Positions 56,430 through 64,000 of a stretch of DNA of 64,000 bases are shown here, one piece after another. The notes beneath the pieces are model-generated. The model had not been told where the DNA came from. It saw nothing but the letters and a program-made list of their open reading frames with translations, and ran no database searches. The first letter of the stretch is position 1. Each line of letters begins with the position of its first letter. The DNA comes from Parcubacteria group bacterium (GTDB lineage Bacteria > Patescibacteriota > Minisyncoccia > Moranbacterales > UBA9337). The stretch is taken from NCBI GenBank assembly GCA_041662245.1, contig JBAZSW010000001.1:11714-75713 (forward strand), in the 5' to 3' direction. The position numbers were made by a program, and so were the translations under genes.

Positions 56430-57743
56430 ATGTTAGATAATAAAATAAAATTACAGTTAAAAAAACTTCCCGCCACCCCTGGTATTTACATCTTTAAAAA
56501 TAAAGCTGGAGAGATTATTTATGTGGGCAAAGCAACTAGCTTAAAAAATAGGGTGGGTTCGTATTTCTTAAATAAAAATAGGCAGGAATTTGTGCGACCG
56601 ATTGAGAGAATGATTGTGCAAGTAGGAAAAATAAAAACGATTGAAACTGAAACTGTTTTAGAGGCTTTGATTTTGGAAGCTAATCTTATCAAAAAATATC
56701 AGCCTAAGTATAATGTAGACGGCAAAGATGACAAGTCTTTTGCTTATTTTGTCATTACAAAGGAGGACTTTCCAAGAGTATTAATATTAAGGGAAACTGA
56801 TTTGCAAAAAAGTCATCAGTCATCAGTAACTAGTCATCAGAAAAATAAAAATCAAGAAGTGGATAAAAAAATACAAGCTACTAGTTACAAGCTACTAGCT
56901 ACTAACATATTCGGTCCTTACACTTCTGCTGTCCAGATGCAAATTGCTCTAAAAATTATTCGTAAAATTTTTCCTTTTCATAGTCGAAATGAAAAAAGTG
57001 AGAAGGGATGTCTTGAATTTCAAATTGGACTTTGCCCTGGGCCTTATGATGGAGCAATTTCCAAAATTGATTACCGAAAAAACATAAAAAGTATCAAAAT
57101 GATATTGGCGGGAAAGAAAAAGAATCTTTTAAAATCATTAGAGAGAGAAATGCAAAAGTATTCCCAAGAGGAAAAATTTGAAAAAGCTCAAGAAACAAAA
57201 AATAAAATTTTTGCCCTAAGACATATTCAAGAAATTGCCCTTTTGGGCAGTGAAAATAAACCCAATATCTCGAAAAATTTAAGAATAGAAGCGTATGATA
57301 TTTCTAATATTTCAGGTGAATTTGCAGTGGGTTCAATGGTGGTTTTTGAAGGTGAAAAATCAAACAAATCTCAGTATCGAAAATTTAAAATTAAAACTGT
57401 TATCGGCTCAAATGATACCGCGATGATGCAAGAAGTTCTTTTGCGAAGGCTGAAAAATAATTGGAAATTGCCAAATCTAATAATTCTTGATGGAGGAAGA
57501 GGGCATTTGAATATGGGGATAAAAATCTTAGGAGAAAATGGCTTCAATATTCCTATTGTTGGAGTAGCCAAGGGGGTAGAAAGAAAAAAAATAGAAGTGG
57601 TGGGTGAAGATAATATCAAAAATAAAAAAATAAAAGCTATTCTGGCGGATAAAAAATTATTAAAAAGAATCACTGATGAAGCTCATCGCTTTGCTATTAC
57701 TTATCATAAAAAAATTAGAGATAAGGAGCTGGTGTTTAAATAG
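56430..57743 (+). CDS. uvrC: Excinuclease ABC subunit C. Short form lacking the C-terminal (HhH)2, with a repeat-derived in-frame insertion.
   Basis: GIY-YIG (PGIYIFKNKAGEIIYVGKATSLKNRVGSYF), UVR domain (EKFEKAQETKNKIFALRHIQE) and the endonuclease domain, but it ends at 437 aa. nt 56808-56910 encode KSHQSSVTSHQKNKNQ... from agtcatcag and agctactag repeats. Confidence 0.8.
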   Translation: MLDNKIKLQLKKLPATPGIYIFKNKAGEIIYVGKATSLKNRVGSYFLNKNRQEFVRPIERMIVQVGKIKTIETETVLEALILEANLIKKYQPKYNVDGKDDKSFAYFVITKEDFPRVLILRETDLQKSHQSSVTSHQKNKNQEVDKKIQATSYKLLATNIFGPYTSAVQMQIALKIIRKIFPFHSRNEKSEKGCLEFQIGLCPGPYDGAISKIDYRKNIKSIKMILAGKKKNLLKSLEREMQKYSQEEKFEKAQETKNKIFALRHIQEIALLGSENKPNISKNLRIEAYDISNISGEFAVGSMVVFEGEKSNKSQYRKFKIKTVIGSNDTAMMQEVLLRRLKNNWKLPNLIILDGGRGHLNMGIKILGENGFNIPIVGVAKGVERKKIEVVGEDNIKNKKIKAILADKKLLKRITDEAHRFAITYHKKIRDKELVFK

Positions 57744-57794
57744 AGGCTAAATTTATCTGTTTTGTATATAAAAAACCAGTATTTAAGCCAAAAG

Positions 57795-57826
57795 AAGCCA
57801 TTTTCGTTTGACAAAATGGCTTTTTG
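57795..57826 (+). terminator. Intrinsic terminator: aagccatttt / aaaatggctt stem followed by a T-run.
   Basis: Perfect 10-bp stem with an 8-nt loop after uvrC. Confidence 0.65.
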
Positions 57827-58050
57827 GGTGCACAATGTCGAGTTAGTACATTAAAATGAAAAATTGTAAATTTGTCATAGCAGAAAGGATTCTACTTATA
57901 ATGTTTAGGGTTTCAATTTCCCATTAATGATCCAGTCCCTCTTCAGATATGATGCAAGAATTTTTTCTGCTATGGCAAAATCGCGATAGTGAGACTTAAG
58001 AAAGCAGTAAAAATAATTTTATTTGGCACAAGTGCCAAAAGGAGGAAAAT

Positions 58051-58755
58051 ATGGCTACTTATTCAGAAGAACAGATATATAAATTGATGGAAAGTCTGGA
58101 AGTGAAGAACGTAACATCTGATGAAGTTGAAAAGCTCATCCAACTTAATGATTATGTAGGATTATGCGGAGTTCTCAATGGCACGCATAAGATCGTGCCA
58201 GTTGATAATGCAATAGGACAGGAAAGTTTAAAAGTTTATCTCCGCGATCTGTTGTATCCGGATGAGACTATAGAGCTTGGACCAGATGATGGCACCCGAA
58301 TGCTGTTTGATGCTAAGGATTCGTTTGAGGCTGGCACAGAATTTGGATTTGTGAATTGGAAGAAGCATTCTGAAAAGTACAAGATTAGGGTTCGGGTTAC
58401 TGAAATATTTGAGGATGGCACGTTTCCCCAGATATTCGGTTCGTTGTTTCGCGCTTCTCCTGATGAGTTTAAAGGTTTTAGGGAGTTCGTCAAGGAGCAT
58501 CGTCAAGATTTGCGAAAATTCTGTGTAGGGCAAGGCCAAATCGAAGAGTTTGCGACAAGGTATCACGATAAACTCAGGAGAGATGACTGCGGCACATTTT
58601 TTCTACTTGAAAATGAAGATGAGGGCGAGTTTGTCGTTGTTGACTTACGCCTTCTTCCAAGTGCTATGCTTGGGGTGGACATGATTAGACTTGGCTTTTC
58701 TCGCGTTTGGAATGCCAGGTTTCTCCATCGTCTGGTGCTTCCACAAGTGGAATAA
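58051..58755 (+). CDS. Hypothetical protein in a GC-richer island.
   Basis: 234-aa ORF with a good SD (aaaaggagg). Visibly higher GC than the neighbours. Flanked by long non-coding stretches of about 300 and 530 bp. Confidence 0.5.
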   Translation: MATYSEEQIYKLMESLEVKNVTSDEVEKLIQLNDYVGLCGVLNGTHKIVPVDNAIGQESLKVYLRDLLYPDETIELGPDDGTRMLFDAKDSFEAGTEFGFVNWKKHSEKYKIRVRVTEIFEDGTFPQIFGSLFRASPDEFKGFREFVKEHRQDLRKFCVGQGQIEEFATRYHDKLRRDDCGTFFLLENEDEGEFVVVDLRLLPSAMLGVDMIRLGFSRVWNARFLHRLVLPQVE

Positions 58756-58774
58756 CCCAAAGATTTTGCGTTTT

Positions 58775-58819
58775 AATCCCTTTGATTCTTTATTATTTTG
58801 AATCAAGGGGATTTTTTTG
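58775..58819 (+). terminator. Intrinsic terminator: aatccctttgattc / gaatcaaggggatt 14-bp stem followed by a T7 run.
   Basis: Seen directly in the sequence. Confidence 0.65.
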
Positions 58820-58959
58820 TACAACAACACGATCTCGGAAAAACTAACACAGACGAGGCGATACTTCGTTTGTATATTATGTTACGCTAAGATAAAAACT
58901 CTTGACAAAAACTGATGATTTGCTACTTTAAACTACTAGTTTAGAATTGAAAAAAGCTT

Positions 58960-59095
58960 AAAAAATTCTATCTGTAGTTTGAAAATAGGTATCCTCCTTA
59001 ATTCCTATGAGTAAATAAAAAGTATCCGATTTCTATCTATTAGAAAGAGGATATGCTCTACAGATAGAGTTTCTTGGGCTTTTTTTAACACTACA
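58960..59095 (+). ncRNA. Candidate structured small RNA. The long-range inverted repeat ttctatctgtag ... ctacagataga encloses internal stems and ends in gggcttttttt.
   Basis: Inverted repeats and a U-tail in a 530-bp non-coding stretch. The sense strand is uncertain. Confidence 0.3.
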
Positions 59096-59284
59096 AATTA
59101 CAAATCTGGTACAAATATACGAATTGAGGAATTTAAGATTTTAGGAATTTGAGAAGCTAGGATCTGAAGATTGCTATGTTGTTTTAATGCTTTTATGTTT
59201 ATTTGTTTCAATGATTAGTGTTAACATCCATCATTTTATATGCTATTATATCAATAATAAAGCTAACTCTAATCTTAAAATAAT

Positions 59285-60343
59285 ATGCAAATAAAAAATC
59301 TCAATGTTTATTTTTTTATTTTGATTTTACTGGGTATCACAGGGATAACGTACTTTTTATTCCAACCATTTTTGTCTGCTATTATAATGGCAGCTGTGAT
59401 AGCTGTTACTTTTCATGCACCCTATCAATATTTGTTAAAGAAAATCAAACACCCCCATGTCAGCTCTCTGCTGACTTGTCTTTTGGTTTTATTTGTAATT
59501 GTTTTGCCAGTATTTTTGATAATGGGTCTTATGTCCAGCGAAATCAATGACGCTTATCAAAAAATAGTATCTGAGGATAATTTCTATCAAAATCATGTTG
59601 TCAACTATTTGGATGTTTTTAAAAATTCTAAATTTTCCAAGGCAATTAATTTAAATAATTTTTTTGATCAAAATCAAATAAATAAATCAGTAGAACAAAT
59701 CAGCAGTGGATTTCTATCTCTTCTTCAGACAGTCTATCAAAATGTGGTAGGGTTAGTTATCTGGATTTTTGTGATGTTTTTTACTTTGTATTATTTTTTG
59801 GTAGAAAACAAAACTATTATAAAAAAGATAATGTATCTCAGTCCTCTTAAAGACGAATATGAGGTGGCTTTAACGGATAATTTTTCTTCAATGGTGGCGG
59901 CAACCTTGAAAGGGACACTGGTCGTGGGAGTAGTTCAGGGTATTTTAGGGGGATTAATGTTTGCTGTTGCAGGTATTCCATCTTTTATAATTTGGGGAAT
60001 TGTTATGATACTTTTTTCTGTTATCCCTGCAGTCGGGTCAGGATTAATATGGGTACCAATGGGAATTATTATGTTATTTGGAGGGCATATTTGGCAAGGA
60101 ATTTTTATTTTTATATTTGGAAGTTTAGTTATTTCTACTATTGATAATATTTTAAGAACGAAATTGGTTGGTAGGGATACAGCTATCCACCCTCTCTTAG
60201 TTTTCTTTGCTACCTTAGGAGGCATTATGTCTTTTGGAATATTAGGTTTTATAATTGGTCCTGTAATTATGGCGCTTTTTCTGACTCTTTGGGATATTTA
60301 TGGAAAGGAATTCGGCGTCCAATTAAAGAAATATAATGCTTGA
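59285..60343 (+). CDS. AI-2E family transporter (second paralog).
   Basis: Polytopic, with the VIPAVGSGLIWVPMGIIMLFGG motif. Confidence 0.7.
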   Translation: MQIKNLNVYFFILILLGITGITYFLFQPFLSAIIMAAVIAVTFHAPYQYLLKKIKHPHVSSLLTCLLVLFVIVLPVFLIMGLMSSEINDAYQKIVSEDNFYQNHVVNYLDVFKNSKFSKAINLNNFFDQNQINKSVEQISSGFLSLLQTVYQNVVGLVIWIFVMFFTLYYFLVENKTIIKKIMYLSPLKDEYEVALTDNFSSMVAATLKGTLVVGVVQGILGGLMFAVAGIPSFIIWGIVMILFSVIPAVGSGLIWVPMGIIMLFGGHIWQGIFIFIFGSLVISTIDNILRTKLVGRDTAIHPLLVFFATLGGIMSFGILGFIIGPVIMALFLTLWDIYGKEFGVQLKKYNA

Positions 60344-61172
60344 GCTTTACCAAAATTTACCCGAAAAATTAAATCCGGTATTTTTTTCTGTGGGATCTTT
60401 TTCGATCTATTGGTATTCAATAATGTATTTAGTGGGTTTTGCGGTAGTTAGCGGGTTATTGTATTGGCGAGTTTATAAAAAAGAAACGAATATTATTTGG
60501 GATGATATTTTTGATTTATTGCTAAGCTCTTTTTTGGGAGCAATTATTGGAGGAAGGATTGGCTACGTTATCTTCTATAATTTTATATACTTTTTGACTA
60601 ATCCAATAGAAATAATATTCCCTTTTGCCGAAAATGGGCAGTTTACCGGAATTTATGGAATGAGTTATCATGGAGGAGTACTGGGATTTATTTTGGTAGC
60701 TTATTTCTTTTGCAAGAAGCGAAAAATAAATTTTTGGAAAATAACCGATTTTATTTTACCAGCTATACCTGCAGGATATTTTTTTGGACGAGTGGGCAAT
60801 TTTTTAAATGGAGAGTTATATGGGAGATCGACTACATATCCATGGGGGATGAATTTTGGCGATGGATTTTTGCGTCATCCTTCACAATTGTATGAAGCTT
60901 TTTTTGAGGGAATCTTTCTCTTTGTAATCTTGTGGCTACTACGAAATAAAATGGATAAAAAAAACGGAATGATTACAGGATTGTATGTTTTTGGTTATGG
61001 AACGATAAGATTTATTATTGAGTTTTTCCGCGAGCCGGATATTCAAGTTGGTTTATTTTTTAATCTTTTGACGATGGGACAAATGCTTTGTTTGATTATG
61101 ATAGGAGTGGGGATATATTTGGTAATTAAAAATTTAGATAATATAGGAATATGGAAAACAAGAAAAAATTAA
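60336..61172 (+). CDS. lgt: Prolipoprotein diacylglyceryl transferase.
   Basis: FSVGSFSIYWYSIMYLVGF, GGRIGYVIFYN and GRVGNFLNGELYGR are Lgt signatures. Confidence 0.85.
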   Translation: MLELYQNLPEKLNPVFFSVGSFSIYWYSIMYLVGFAVVSGLLYWRVYKKETNIIWDDIFDLLLSSFLGAIIGGRIGYVIFYNFIYFLTNPIEIIFPFAENGQFTGIYGMSYHGGVLGFILVAYFFCKKRKINFWKITDFILPAIPAGYFFGRVGNFLNGELYGRSTTYPWGMNFGDGFLRHPSQLYEAFFEGIFLFVILWLLRNKMDKKNGMITGLYVFGYGTIRFIIEFFREPDIQVGLFFNLLTMGQMLCLIMIGVGIYLVIKNLDNIGIWKTRKN

Positions 61173-62194
61173 TTATTGAATTAAACAAAAAACATTCAGA
61201 AATGTTTCAAGCTCAACGTTTGGAGCGAGAATTATATTTATCCAAGCATCCCACCAATGTAATGGTATTTAAATGTATGGATGGTCGGATTCATATGCCC
61301 ACAGTGACACGTACGCCGCTAGGAATTATGAAACCTTTTCGAAATATTGGAGGAAGATTTGATTTGGGCTGGCCACTTCTTAATGAATCATTTGATCAAA
61401 GTATTAAGAAAGCGGTAGCTAAAGGAAATCGTACGTTAGTATTGGTTACTTATCATTATTCACAAGGAGATGAGAATCGTGGTTGCGCGGGGTTTCATTA
61501 TAATTGCGAGGATTCAAAAAGATTTACTGAGAATTTTCGCAGGCAAATTTTGCGAACTTATGGAGAAAATAATGGAGTAGTTTTTCCTATATTGGTGGGA
61601 TTAGAAACTGACAAGGACGCCTTGATTTTTCATGGAGATAAAGGGAAGATATTAGATGTTTCTACCATTGCTGATGATTCAAAGAAAAATCTAGTTTCTT
61701 TGTTTCATAAAATTTATCCCTTGATGCCAGAAAGAATTTTGGAAGATTTAATTCCGCTTGTGGCGGGAAATATAAAGCGTATTGCAGAAACTAAAAGTAA
61801 AGGCAAACCACTGGATCAACTGGTGCATGGTGAATGGGTATTGGCAGTTGGCAAGGGTTTTGATTGGTTACATACTCCCAATATGGCTCTAATTGTGGGA
61901 CCCTATGATCCCAATATCGGAGAACCAATTAATACCGCCGCTGGAATAATCAAATCGAACCTAGAGGCTGCGGGAGCGCAACATCGGCATGGTTCCTCTG
62001 CAGGAATGGTGCTACTTTCATCAGCAGTTTATGCAGATCCAGCTGAAAAAACTAGAGCCAAAGAGAGGACTCTTTATATGAGCAGGCTATCGCGGGAAAT
62101 AATAGAGAAAAATTATCCAGAGATGCTTAATCAAATGCATTCTATGGCGGTAGTGCTTAATGCTTTTACAATGGAAATGGAGATTGTGGAGTAA
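61151..62194 (+). CDS. Hypothetical protein upstream of the NuoB-like gene.
   Basis: 347-aa ORF. It contains a CMDGRI (CxDxR) motif but no beta-carbonic-anhydrase HxxC. FHKIYPLMPERIL weakly recalls the NuoC HPxLRRIL motif. Unassigned. Confidence 0.4.
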   Translation: MENKKKLIIELNKKHSEMFQAQRLERELYLSKHPTNVMVFKCMDGRIHMPTVTRTPLGIMKPFRNIGGRFDLGWPLLNESFDQSIKKAVAKGNRTLVLVTYHYSQGDENRGCAGFHYNCEDSKRFTENFRRQILRTYGENNGVVFPILVGLETDKDALIFHGDKGKILDVSTIADDSKKNLVSLFHKIYPLMPERILEDLIPLVAGNIKRIAETKSKGKPLDQLVHGEWVLAVGKGFDWLHTPNMALIVGPYDPNIGEPINTAAGIIKSNLEAAGAQHRHGSSAGMVLLSSAVYADPAEKTRAKERTLYMSRLSREIIEKNYPEMLNQMHSMAVVLNAFTMEMEIVE

Positions 62195-62422
62195 TCTCAA
62201 ATAAATCTTGCTTGTAATTTTTTAAGTAGTTGATTGTCGGTTGCAAGTTATTGCTAACTGTCCGAATTTGACAGATATTTTTAGTAGGAGTAATATTATT
62301 TTTGTGAATGATGTATTTTTTAAATTACAAAAACTTTTAAATTTTTTCGGTTGAGTCCGTTTTTTTATTTTTTAAAATTTAATAAGAATCATTTCTCTTA
62401 TTGAAAGTTTATAAAAATTTGT

Positions 62423-62953
62423 ATGAAAATTTTTTCATTAATGAAGGTTTTGCTATGGCAAAAAAATGTTACCCAAAATAAAAATGATTTTTTTTACTTG
62501 GAAAAAGATGGAGATTTCGAGAAAATTGGGGCAGAGGTTCATGCTATCGTAAAAGAGCTTTATAAGGGACGATCCTTGAGAATCAGAGCAATTGATGCCG
62601 GATCAACTAATGCAGAAGAGATAGAACTAACTGCTTTGAGCAATGCCTATTATGATATTGATCGTTTCGGTTTAAGTTTTGTAGCGTCACCTCGACATGC
62701 CGATATGCTTTTTATAACAGGTCCTGTAACTAGAAATTTAGAGCAAGCACTTCGAACAACTTATGAAGCCACTCCGAAGCCTTGCATTGTTGTGGCTGTC
62801 GGAGACGGAGCTTGTACGGGAGGAATTTGGAAAGATTCTTATGCAATAGTAGGGGCAGTAGAAGATGTAATCCCTGTGCATATCCATATTCCTGGGGATC
62901 CACCAACTCCCGTTGAAATTTTAAAAGGAGTACTAAATGTTTTAAAAAATTAG
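62423..62953 (+). CDS. NuoB / hydrogenase-small-subunit-like protein with degenerate Fe-S ligands.
   Basis: Aligns to the NuoB core: YYDIDRFGLSFVASPRHADMLFITGPVTRNLEQALRTTYEATPKPCIVVAVGDGACTGGIW.DSYAIVGAVEDVIPVHIHIPGDPPTPVE. The CC pair is replaced (AGSTN) and PGCPP becomes PGDPP. Only the GAC cysteine is retained. Confidence 0.7.
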   Translation: MKIFSLMKVLLWQKNVTQNKNDFFYLEKDGDFEKIGAEVHAIVKELYKGRSLRIRAIDAGSTNAEEIELTALSNAYYDIDRFGLSFVASPRHADMLFITGPVTRNLEQALRTTYEATPKPCIVVAVGDGACTGGIWKDSYAIVGAVEDVIPVHIHIPGDPPTPVEILKGVLNVLKN

Positions 62954-63040
62954 AATTTACACGTTTAAATAATATTTTTTAGAAACTGGAAATATATAAA
63001 TTTAAGCAAGTAAATTGCAAAAATATAAAATAACGATTAT

Positions 63041-64000
63041 ATGTTAGAACAAATAATTACTTATAGTATTGGGATTTATTTTTTTAGTCTTTTTTTATCA
63101 GGACTGCTATCTTTTAGCGGCAAATCATTTAAATTGGCTACTTGGCTATTTGTTTTTTCAAACATTATTGGATTTTTTTCAGGGATAATCTATTTTTTAA
63201 ATTTTTTCCCTAAAAGAATTACCTTTCTTCATCTTGATTGGTTTTTAAATTTTGCTCCACAATTAAATTTGCTTTCTGCGATTTTTTTCATTTTATTAAG
63301 TATCGTTTCTGCTATAGTGGGTGTCTATAGTGTTAGGTACTTAGAATTATATAAAAAATCATATAACCCAAGAATAGTTCAATTTTTAATGTCCTTTTTT
63401 GTTTTGGGAATGCAGGGGGTTTTTATTTCCAATAATTCTTTTGCTTTTCTGTTTTTTTGGGAAGTAATGTCAATTGCTTCTTTCTTTTTAGTTTTATCAG
63501 ATAGAACTCAAGAATCTGTTCGAGCAGCTTTTATTTATTTTATAATGACACATTTGGGAGCATCCGCAATATTAGGAGGATTTTTGATTTTAGGAAATGG
63601 ATCTATTTTATTTGATTTAAATAATATCCAAAGTGCTTCATCAAATTTATCTTATGAAAAGATATGTTTAGTTTTTTTATTGTTTGCTTTCGGTTTTGGC
63701 TCAAAGGCAGGCTTGGTGCCTTTTCATGTTTGGCTTCCCGAAGCTCATCCTCAGGCTCCTAGTAATATTTCCGCTCTCATGAGTGGTTTAATGCTCAAGG
63801 TAGCTGTGTATGGATTTGTTTTTATTGTCATTGGACTGGCCAATATCCCTAGTTGGTTGGGATTAGTTATCGTTTTCTTAGGATTGCTTTCTTCTATGAC
63901 AGGAGTGCTGTATGCCACTATGGAAAGAGATATCAAGAGAGCTTTTGCTTATAGCAGTATCGAAAATATGGGAATTGTTTTTACTATGTTAGGATTGGCT
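63041..64000 (+). CDS. Complex I NuoL/M/N / Mrp MnhA / HyfB-type antiporter-like membrane subunit. 3'-truncated by the window edge; absent from the ORF track.
   Basis: Translated by hand: MLEQIITYS...GLVPFHVWLPEAHPQAPSNISALMSGLMLKVAVYGF... The PFHxWLPxAxxxP..xSAL motif is typical of the family. No stop codon before the window end. Confidence 0.7.
   Translation, partial: MLEQIITYSIGIYFFSLFLSGLLSFSGKSFKLATWLFVFSNIIGFFSGIIYFLNFFPKRITFLHLDWFLNFAPQLNLLSAIFFILLSIVSAIVGVYSVRYLELYKKSYNPRIVQFLMSFFVLGMQGVFISNNSFAFLFFWEVMSIASFFLVLSDRTQESVRAAFIYFIMTHLGASAILGGFLILGNGSILFDLNNIQSASSNLSYEKICLVFLLFAFGFGSKAGLVPFHVWLPEAHPQAPSNISALMSGLMLKVAVYGFVFIVIGLANIPSWLGLVIVFLGLLSSMTGVLYATMERDIKRAFAYSSIENMGIVFTMLGLA

Follow-up and report, generated by a model that had tools for sequence, protein, structure and literature searches.

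Positions 61151-64000 of the analyzed stretch of DNA (the window: 64,000 nucleotides of contig JBAZSW010000001.1 from a Parcubacteria group bacterium, with proteins whose closest relatives are found in Moranbacteria) hold three co-directional open reading frames (ORFs) on the plus strand, two of which are predicted to open the operon of an energy-converting hydrogenase-related (Ehr) complex of the kind encoded by bacteria of the candidate phyla radiation (CPR). This CPR-type Ehr is predicted to have no cofactor site whatever, a step beyond most other Ehr complexes. Both Ehr and the carbonic anhydrase (CA) encoded upstream of it belong to described families; what is apparently new is the full loss of cofactor sites together with a conserved supercluster of atp, CA and Ehr genes. 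We estimate at roughly 45%, somewhat short of even odds, the probability that the CPR Ehr translocates H+, or H+/cation, without redox chemistry and that it shares a proton/bicarbonate circuit with the F1Fo ATPase and a CA in the cytoplasm.

An Ehr complex without cofactor sites

Because the window ends within the second Ehr gene, the rest of the operon was read from a 13,076-bp contig (L001) found by exact-protein look-up, on which positions are converted to those of the window by adding 59038 and which is identical to the window at all 4,962 overlapping bases. The gene order on L001 is AI-2E-family transporter, Lgt, CA, small subunit (PF01058), HyfB-like protein of 664 aa (PF00361), HyfC/HyfE fusion, HyfF-like and HyfG-like proteins (Table 1), followed by a small convergent ORF and a convergent RluD-like gene. 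The original prediction of an Ehr-like module related to complex I and group 4 hydrogenases, with its remaining subunits beyond the window, agrees with this gene set, which includes the expected NuoH- and NuoC+D-like subunits, and with the loss of the NiFe-ligating Cys described below. A canonical nuo operon, the alternative considered there, is ruled out: L001 holds five Hyf-type genes and then the convergent RluD-like gene, and no further nuo genes (NuoA, E, F, G, I or J) were found on this contig.

Table 1. Features of the CA-Ehr locus in the window and, with the prefix L001, on the extended contig
Feature	Position	Strand	Assignment or context
ORF, 347 aa	61151-62194	+	predicted CsoSCA2-type beta-carbonic anhydrase
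Spacer, AT-rich, 228 bp	62195-62422		between the CA gene and the Ehr operon
ORF, 176 aa	62423-62953	+	predicted Ehr small subunit, HyfI/HycG/MbhJ/NuoB fold
ORF, 5' part, 320 of 664 codons	63041-64000	+	HyfB/HycC/NuoL-type antiporter-like subunit; continues past the window end
HyfC+HyfE fusion, 532 aa	L001 5994-7592		NuoH (PF00146) + NuoK (PF00420); downstream of the HyfB-like gene
HyfF-like protein, 491 aa	L001 7617-9092		PF00361; downstream of the HyfC/HyfE fusion
Large subunit, 519 aa	L001 9238-10797		NuoC+D/HyfG-like (PF00329/PF00346); last Ehr gene

The small subunit is predicted to keep the HycG/MbhJ/NuoB fold. It matches Oxidored_q6 of Pfam (PF01058; E = 2.3e-23), MbhJ of Pyrococcus furiosus (E = 2.6e-26), HycG of Escherichia coli (E = 1.7e-25) and the PSST/NuoB chains of complex I (E about 1e-22), and its AlphaFold2 (AF2) model (pLDDT 85.3) superposes on HycG and MbhJ (for MbhJ, TM-score 0.82 and root mean square deviation 2.2 A), which bears out the NuoB-like identity assigned to it at the outset. 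Alignments with MbhJ, HycG and PSST place a Cys in none of the four [4Fe-4S] ligand columns: the CxxC pair is replaced by T62 and E65 (62606-62617), the third column holds G129, and the Cys of PGCPP is replaced by D159 (62897-62899), so that the motif reads PGDPP. C131, two residues past the third ligand column, is the sole nearby Cys; the protein has only one other (C121), contains no CxxC and, because residues 1-120 are free of Cys, lacks the tandem-Cys motif of NuoB that serves cluster N2. The loss of ligands and the change from PGCPP to PGDPP, both originally read from a hand alignment, are thus upheld. Two details are revised: the one ligand of four thought to be kept is the off-register C131, and the replacement described as CC to ST applied the complex I motif and was out by a residue or two.

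The same pattern extends over the 120 closest small-subunit clusters (68-100% identity; Moran-, Falkow-, Uhr- and Parcubacteria), in which the first motif is TNAE, SNAE or TNGE and in no case includes a Cys, PG-D-PP is present in 100 (17 fail to match the search pattern), and C131 is swapped in 14, which read GAID.

The large subunit matches HycE (E = 1.3e-67), MbhL (E = 2.5e-40) and Nqo4 (E = 1.3e-36). Where HycE has RVCGICGFAH and DPCYSCTD, this protein has RLSGDASASH and NLSYSGNDL; all four NiFe-ligating Cys (RxCGxC, DPCxxC) are gone, as they are in the CPR orthologs. By this loss and by its gene set, the locus is predicted to encode an Ehr complex of the Hyf/formate hydrogenlyase (FHL) type, and the CPR Ehr cannot make or use H2. 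The residues R223, S225, G226, D227 and N507-L519 are invariant between CPR and Betaproteobacteria at ~35% overall identity, and the RxSGD/NLSYSG signature is common to many metagenomic Ehr. No HycF/HyfH/NuoI ferredoxin-like subunit was found among the genes called on L001, and none of the five Ehr proteins contains a CxxC. In the absence of NiFe ligands, [4Fe-4S] ligands and a ferredoxin-like subunit, no electron path is visible. E. coli hydrogenase-4 (Hyf) and FHL (HycBCDEFG; PDB 7Z0S) provide the best sequence and structure matches for each subunit; unlike them, the CPR Ehr lacks the NiFe site and the proximal cluster, has HyfC and HyfE fused, and is encoded without HycF/HyfH, HyfA, HyfD, FdhF or maturation genes nearby.

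The antiporter subunit of NuoL/HyfB type that was originally seen to run off the window matches PF00361, HycC (E = 2.8e-47) and NCBIfam hydrogenase 4 subunit B (E = 1.9e-137); NCBIfam also recognizes the HyfF-like protein as hydrogenase-4 subunit F (E = 9.1e-106) and identifies HyfE (E = 2.4e-15) in the C-terminal portion of the fusion. The profile searches proposed for the locus returned Oxidored_q6, PF00361 and the hydrogenase 4 families. Inside the window, the HyfB-like sequence includes the Glu of transmembrane helix (TM) 5 (WEVMS), the TM7 Lys (GSKAGLVPFHVWLP) and the TM8 Lys (LMLKV), with the TM12 Lys (HALFKT) just past the window end; read from sequence, the HyfF-like subunit retains the TM5 Glu and the TM7 and TM12 Lys, and the NuoK-like segment retains two membrane Glu. 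The roles of such buried Glu and Lys residues are well established for complex I. Among Mrp components, only MrpA/D-like (PF00361) and MrpC/NuoK-like (PF00420) parts are present, and homologs of MrpB, MrpE, MrpF and MrpG were not found. The CPR Ehr thus shares with Mrp antiporters and the Mrp-like module of membrane-bound hydrogenase (PDB 6CFW, 7QRU, 6Z16) the PF00361 subunits with their Glu and Lys, the NuoK/MrpC-like segment and, as proposed here, a redox-independent mode of action, but differs from Mrp in lacking MrpB/E/F/G and in having NuoH-, NuoB- and NuoCD-like subunits, which Mrp does not possess.

Ehr large subunits without the NiFe Cys have been described previously from CPR bacteria, where they form a monophyletic and patchily distributed clade (Jaffe et al. 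2020, PMC7304191). Ehr is defined in published accounts (including PMC7304191) by the loss of NiFe ligands in the large subunit. The original prediction took for the hallmark of Ehr that the NuoB-like subunit has lost Fe-S ligands; this is not that hallmark, and most Ehr small subunits keep all four Cys in a sample of 80 metagenome loci with the nearest homologs of the large subunit, whatever their type. Cys-poor small subunits were detected in 8 of these 80 loci, and in all 8 the small-subunit gene comes first. The Betaproteobacterial Ehr with an RxSGD/NLSYSG large subunit also keep GSCNGCELE, GDCGC and PGCPP in the small subunit. The Cys-free small subunit is thus an additional step, one seen in CPR bacteria and in a few lineages besides. 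Compared with other Ehr (Jaffe et al. 2020, PMC7304191), the CPR type is alike in the large subunit without NiFe Cys and in the presence of small, NuoH-like and Mrp/NuoL-like subunits; it is unlike them in lacking also the [4Fe-4S] ligands of the small subunit and the ferredoxin-like subunit, most others keeping CxxC...C...PGCPP.

Several other Ehr lineages (L092 3851-4778, L117 1269-13725, L095, L098, L099 and L101; large subunit 38-43% identical) also have Cys-poor small subunits, with motifs such as GSDNACEQE, GDDAIDGG and PGNPP/PGDPP in which acidic or polar residues stand in place of Cys. The small-subunit gene leads in all of them, and L092 and L117 adjoin atp operons. Recurrent swaps of Cys for Asp, Glu or Asn might form a cation site or a salt-bridge network that replaces the cluster.

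It is very improbable that the CPR Ehr is still a redox enzyme to which an unlinked partner (formate dehydrogenase or ferredoxin) feeds electrons, an unknown acceptor being reduced and ions pumped. Complexes of formate dehydrogenase with Ehr have been hypothesized in the literature for Margulisbacteria and Saganbacteria, and the Betaproteobacterial relatives retain the four Cys of the small subunit, but the CPR clade has neither Cys in the cluster columns nor NiFe ligands nor a HycF/NuoI-like gene. The intergenic gaps of the five-gene block (87, -4, 24 and 145 bp) are too small for such a gene and, for the same reason, conceal no additional subunit; no redox genes were found in the neighborhoods of 15 CPR-type Ehr loci.

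A CsoSCA2-type carbonic anhydrase upstream of Ehr

The 347-aa ORF preceding the Ehr operon is predicted to encode a beta-carbonic anhydrase of the CsoSCA2 type whose zinc site is intact. The suggestion that it might be a further diverged subunit of the complex is not sustained, since the protein matches Pfam CsoSCA_cat (PF20686; E = 3.1e-5, above the cutoff), a profile of 69 family sequences matches the CsoSCA structure 2FGY (E = 2.8e-9) with the ligands aligned, and the top Foldseek matches of its AF2 model (pLDDT 93.9) are CsoSCA structures (9G4T, 8THM and 2FGY; E ~1e-16, TM-score 0.7, about 370 columns). The predicted Zn ligands are C42 (61274-61276), H102 (61454-61456) and C112 (61484-61486), the dyad is Asp44/Arg46, and the His proposed as proton shuttle in CsoSCA corresponds in the alignment to H226 (61826-61828); C42, D44, R46, H102, C112 and H226 are invariant in the 69 homologs. 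Because the shuttle His is retained, CsoSCA2 looks like an ordinary, freely reversible CA; the vectorial DabA has Leu in its place, and DabA (PF10070) gave no match in this ORF.

The protein consists of an active and a defunct beta-CA domain preceded by a short two-helix N-terminus (helices 2-21 and 23-32; about 40 aa that replace the 144-aa N-domain of CsoSCA) and has no membrane helices. In its domain pair, catalytic residues and two-helix N-terminus it corresponds, with no difference at the protein level, to CsoSCA2, a non-carboxysomal and widespread family that was named in 2022, is recorded in Moran-, Falkow-, Uhr- and Magasanikbacteria and had, by that account, no assayed member (PMC9164163). 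We found homologs in over 2,000 clusters and at least 583 species genomes. L001 extends from ~1.9 kb before the CA gene to 10 kb beyond it, and none of the genes called there was found to belong to a carboxysome gene family.

Purifying selection and presence or absence of the operon

Ratios of nonsynonymous to synonymous substitutions (dN/dS) were estimated by the Nei-Gojobori method against the orthologous loci L163 and L162, and because dS is saturated they are rough. The values are 0.04-0.06 for the small subunit, the most conserved of the Ehr genes, 0.09 for the large subunit and 0.07-0.11 for the membrane subunits, similar to or below those of the flanking housekeeping genes (0.11 for the AI-2E gene and 0.09 for Lgt). 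All five Ehr ORFs are intact, and their order is kept across Moran-, Uhr- and Falkowbacteria. The Ehr genes are therefore under strong purifying selection.

The operon is nonetheless accessory: in L003, with a CA 86% identical to that of the window, the same flanks (AI-2E, Lgt, CsoSCA2 ... RluD-like) enclose a gene of the Na_Ca_ex family instead of Ehr. The order is CsoSCA2-Ehr-Na_Ca_ex in L163, CsoSCA2-Na_Ca_ex in L003, and CsoSCA2-Ehr without the exchanger in the genome of the window, and the 7.4-kb Ehr operon is cleanly present or absent between the common flanks (L003 5086-8577 versus L001 2113-12052 and L163 2070-11639). Such variation among close relatives, along with the patchy distribution of the clade (PMC7304191), is what one would cite for a laterally acquired hydrogenase remnant that is nearing loss and has no present function. 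We find this scarcely credible, and the selection data already contradict it: the five ORFs are intact with dN/dS of 0.04-0.10, there are at least 120 small-subunit ortholog clusters of constant length, the gene order is maintained in three lineages, and the former active-site motifs are invariant. Having no NiFe, Fe-S or ferredoxin subunit and yet being constrained, the CPR Ehr would do its work by the ion-translocating and coupling machinery alone; as a complex-I/hydrogenase scaffold that is "redox-dead" but as constrained as housekeeping genes, it is the cleanest natural case.

Genomic neighborhoods of Ehr and CsoSCA2

We surveyed 80 genome loci centered on the CA gene and, for Ehr, combined the 80-locus metagenome scan with nine contig look-ups; 15 loci in all are of the CPR type, with a Cys-free small subunit. 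A complete atpIBEFHAGDC operon lies directly upstream of Ehr, on the same strand, in 11 of the 15, and a CA gene adjoins Ehr in 10 (nine CsoSCA2, one gamma-CA). The arrangements are atp-CsoSCA2-Ehr (L012, L014, L015, L167), atp-Ehr (L082, L083, L165, L168, L169), atp-Ehr-gamma-CA (L164), atp-X-Ehr-CsoSCA2 (L166) and, as in the window, Lgt-CsoSCA2-Ehr (L001, L163, L008, L009); L008, L009, L012, L014 and L015, with CsoSCA2 followed by the Ehr operon, are of the Moranbacteria type. In orthologous loci the spacer between CA and small-subunit genes measures 117-355 bp. In L164 (Uhrbacteria), the gene that directly follows Ehr encodes the gamma-CA; the protein matches two NCBIfam models, CcmM gamma-CA domain (E = 1.6e-46) and carbonic anhydrase (E = 1.4e-36), and has, as read by eye, three His spaced as in Cam-type gamma-CAs. 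In plant and protist mitochondria, a gamma-carbonic-anhydrase domain is physically bound to complex I, a full redox enzyme, whereas L164 shows only gene adjacency and its complex is cofactor-less. The atp-CA-Ehr association was not found in the literature on Ehr or CsoSCA2 (including PMC7304191 and PMC9164163) and is apparently unreported; the CsoSCA2 section of PMC9164163 does not discuss the atp, Ehr, DabA-operon and SulP neighbors found here.

Outside this arrangement, many CPR loci have a complete F1Fo operon that ends in atpC with CsoSCA2 as the next gene, and at least nine of these loci have no Ehr. In Thiobacillus, Sulfuricella and related loci (L048, L049, L055, L068, L072), CsoSCA2 is convergent with the Ehr operon; these Betaproteobacterial pairs have no atp genes, and their gene order and orientation differ from those in CPR. 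In Nitrosomonas, Thiodiazotropha and others, CsoSCA2 is the last gene of an operon that also encodes four PF00361 proteins and DabA (PF10070; E = 3.3e-240), proteobacterial loci being the only ones with a true DabA beside CsoSCA2, and in Nitrospira and others it adjoins SulP. The CsoSCA2 family thereby gains ATP synthase, Ehr, DabA operons and SulP as conserved partners. A general link between Ehr and CA is ruled out: among the 80 metagenome loci, CsoSCA2 lies within 10 kb of Ehr in only two (L089 and L090), in the order Ehr, SulP-family transporter (PF00916), CsoSCA2. The CA-Ehr link is lineage-specific, mainly of the CPR type and some Proteobacteria.

These partners call to mind the DAB system (DabA/DabB) and the cyanobacterial NDH-1MS with CupA, in which a CA-type protein is likewise encoded beside NuoL-type proton-conducting subunits, and DabA has CsoSCA as its nearest structural relative. 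By analogy, the CA might dock on the cofactor-less Ehr so that the proton-motive force made by the ATPase, passing through the antiporter-like subunits, drives one-way hydration of CO2. We regard such a vectorial CA or CO2 pump, the main rival to a proton/bicarbonate circuit with a separate CA, as unlikely. The adjacency of CA genes to two thirds of CPR-type Ehr loci, the placement of CA after Ehr rather than after atp in L164 and L166, the independently arisen CsoSCA2-Ehr adjacency in Betaproteobacteria and that beside SulP in L089 and L090, the inorganic-carbon systems among the other partners of CsoSCA2 (DabA operons in Nitrosomonas, SulP in Nitrospira), and the precedent of CA-like proteins coupled to NuoL-type subunits are all consistent with it, and it would explain the strong conservation of a cofactor-free peripheral stub that is otherwise unexplained. 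However, the same complex would have to accept two structurally unrelated CA classes. In contrast to the DAB and NDH-1MS systems, the locus encodes neither DabA (PF10070) nor CupA but CsoSCA2 (PF20686), a short and soluble protein with no membrane helices; it keeps the putative shuttle His and resembles the freely reversible CsoSCA-type enzyme, and its connection to Ehr is one of gene adjacency. CsoSCA2 is moreover common without Ehr and equally constrained in close relatives that lack it (dN/dS 0.03-0.04; range over all comparisons made for this CA, 0.016-0.04), there is no CA nearby in 5 of the 15 CPR loci, and the Nitrosomonas operons already have DabA, so that CsoSCA2 is not the vectorial enzyme there. 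We also know of no obvious need for bicarbonate accumulation in CPR fermenters. If true, this explanation would make Ehr the third independent complex-I-derived machine for CO2 hydration or proton/bicarbonate handling, after NDH-1MS/Cup and DAB; it would give Ehr its first function and account for the ATP synthase-CA-Ehr supercluster kept in CPR genomes.

Possible function of the CPR Ehr

Given that no electron path is visible and that the buried Glu and Lys are kept, a redox-independent ion-translocating module, as the original prediction had it, is the most reasonable reading of the complex. The translocator would use or convert the proton-motive force, with protons crossing via the HyfB- and HyfF-like subunits, and the NuoH/K-like "E-channel" would link these antiporter-like subunits to the stub of small and large subunits, in which the remodelled former active site (RxSGD, NKSLNLSYSGxDL) may have become a gate or ligand site that does no redox chemistry. 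A fermenter that has no respiratory chain probably builds its proton-motive force by ATP hydrolysis through an H+-coupled F1Fo ATPase, and the cytoplasmic CA could quickly supply or remove H+ and HCO3-. The CA would be a metabolic partner, for which any CA class suffices, and not an obligate subunit; the replacement of CsoSCA2 by a gamma-CA in L164 suggests that CA activity rather than a specific interface matters. In acid-secreting animal cells, by analogy, cytosolic CA feeds protons to H+-ATPases. Ehr being widespread, the atp-CA-Ehr synteny gives a testable hypothesis for its function and bears on how respiration-less CPR bacteria manage proton-motive force and pH.

A number of considerations weigh against this scheme. 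A simple antiporter would not need the stub of NuoH, small and large subunits, and bona fide Mrp antiporters need MrpE, MrpF and MrpG, which the CPR Ehr does not have. That the small subunit is the most conserved and that the motifs of the former NiFe pocket are invariant hints at a specific chemistry or partner. Na+-binding c subunits of ATP synthases carry the signature Q...E-S/T. We compared this signature with the c subunits of seven Ehr-linked atp operons and did not find it; a Na+ economy thus receives no support, and a Na+-coupled ATP synthase is ruled out as a pointer to Na+/H+ antiport. The 64-kb window contains no ATP synthase genes, the rarity of CsoSCA2 in the general metagenome sample (2 of 80, with SulP in between) shows the link to CA to be lineage-specific, and the Ehr operon may have a promoter of its own, a promoter-like TTGACA-17-TAATAT being present at 62268-62296 by a consensus scan only. 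Finally, according to published accounts, the function of Ehr is unknown and no experiment has been made on any Ehr.

Spacer and additional observations

Apart from the promoter-like sequence, the 228-bp spacer upstream of Ehr contains a weak hairpin with a T-run at 62258-62274. A riboswitch or other structured RNA was considered there and rejected: the spacer has no match to Rfam families at E<=1 and folds no better than shuffled sequences (z -1.6). Over 57000-64000 the Rfam scan gave a single match, to CRISPR-DR (E = 0.71), which falls within the CA gene and is put down to chance.

The CA-centered survey brought up a DAB-type layout of unusual size. In Nitrosomonas oligotropha (L030 487-11020), six genes encode a NuoM-like PF00361 protein, a 1103-aa DabA, three PF00361 proteins and CsoSCA2, often with SulP next, and the layout is repeated in L031-L037, L042-L047, L050, L056-L058, L063, L065, L069, L079 and L081. 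Its four antiporter-like subunits and additional soluble CA put it far above the size of the DabAB/DabABC complexes that two 2026 preprints describe. SulP beside CsoSCA2, followed by sigma-54 response regulators, recurs in L034 8072-11032, L038, L041, L052 (Nitrospira), L089 12694-15765 and L090; in L089 and L090 the SulP-CsoSCA2 pair comes directly after a pair of Ehr large and small subunits.

Among the CPR loci, two of those with atp-Ehr and no CA gene (L165 17239-17796 and L168 14877-15455) encode, directly after the Ehr large subunit, related proteins of 185-192 aa (27% identical, E = 3e-17) with conserved C-x-D and H-x-P-C motifs, and in L166 (8722-9939) a 405-aa protein with beta-CA-like motifs CSDGR and HEEC lies between atpC and the Ehr small subunit. 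All three were considered as concealed CAs and rejected, their Pfam and NCBIfam searches being empty and hhalign against the CsoSCA2 profile giving probabilities <2% (405 aa in L166, 185 aa in L165, 192 aa in L168). In two other CPR loci (L021, L024), CsoSCA2 comes right after atpB-E-F-H (clusters 5, 8, 6 and 12) with no atpA-G-D-C in between; unlike the usual atpC-CsoSCA2 junction, this one may reflect a split atp operon or an assembly effect.

Upstream of the AI-2E and Lgt genes, the window also encodes a 234-aa ORF (58051-58755, plus strand) with no significant Pfam family (best E = 0.1), which is bordered by non-coding stretches of about 300 and 530 bp.

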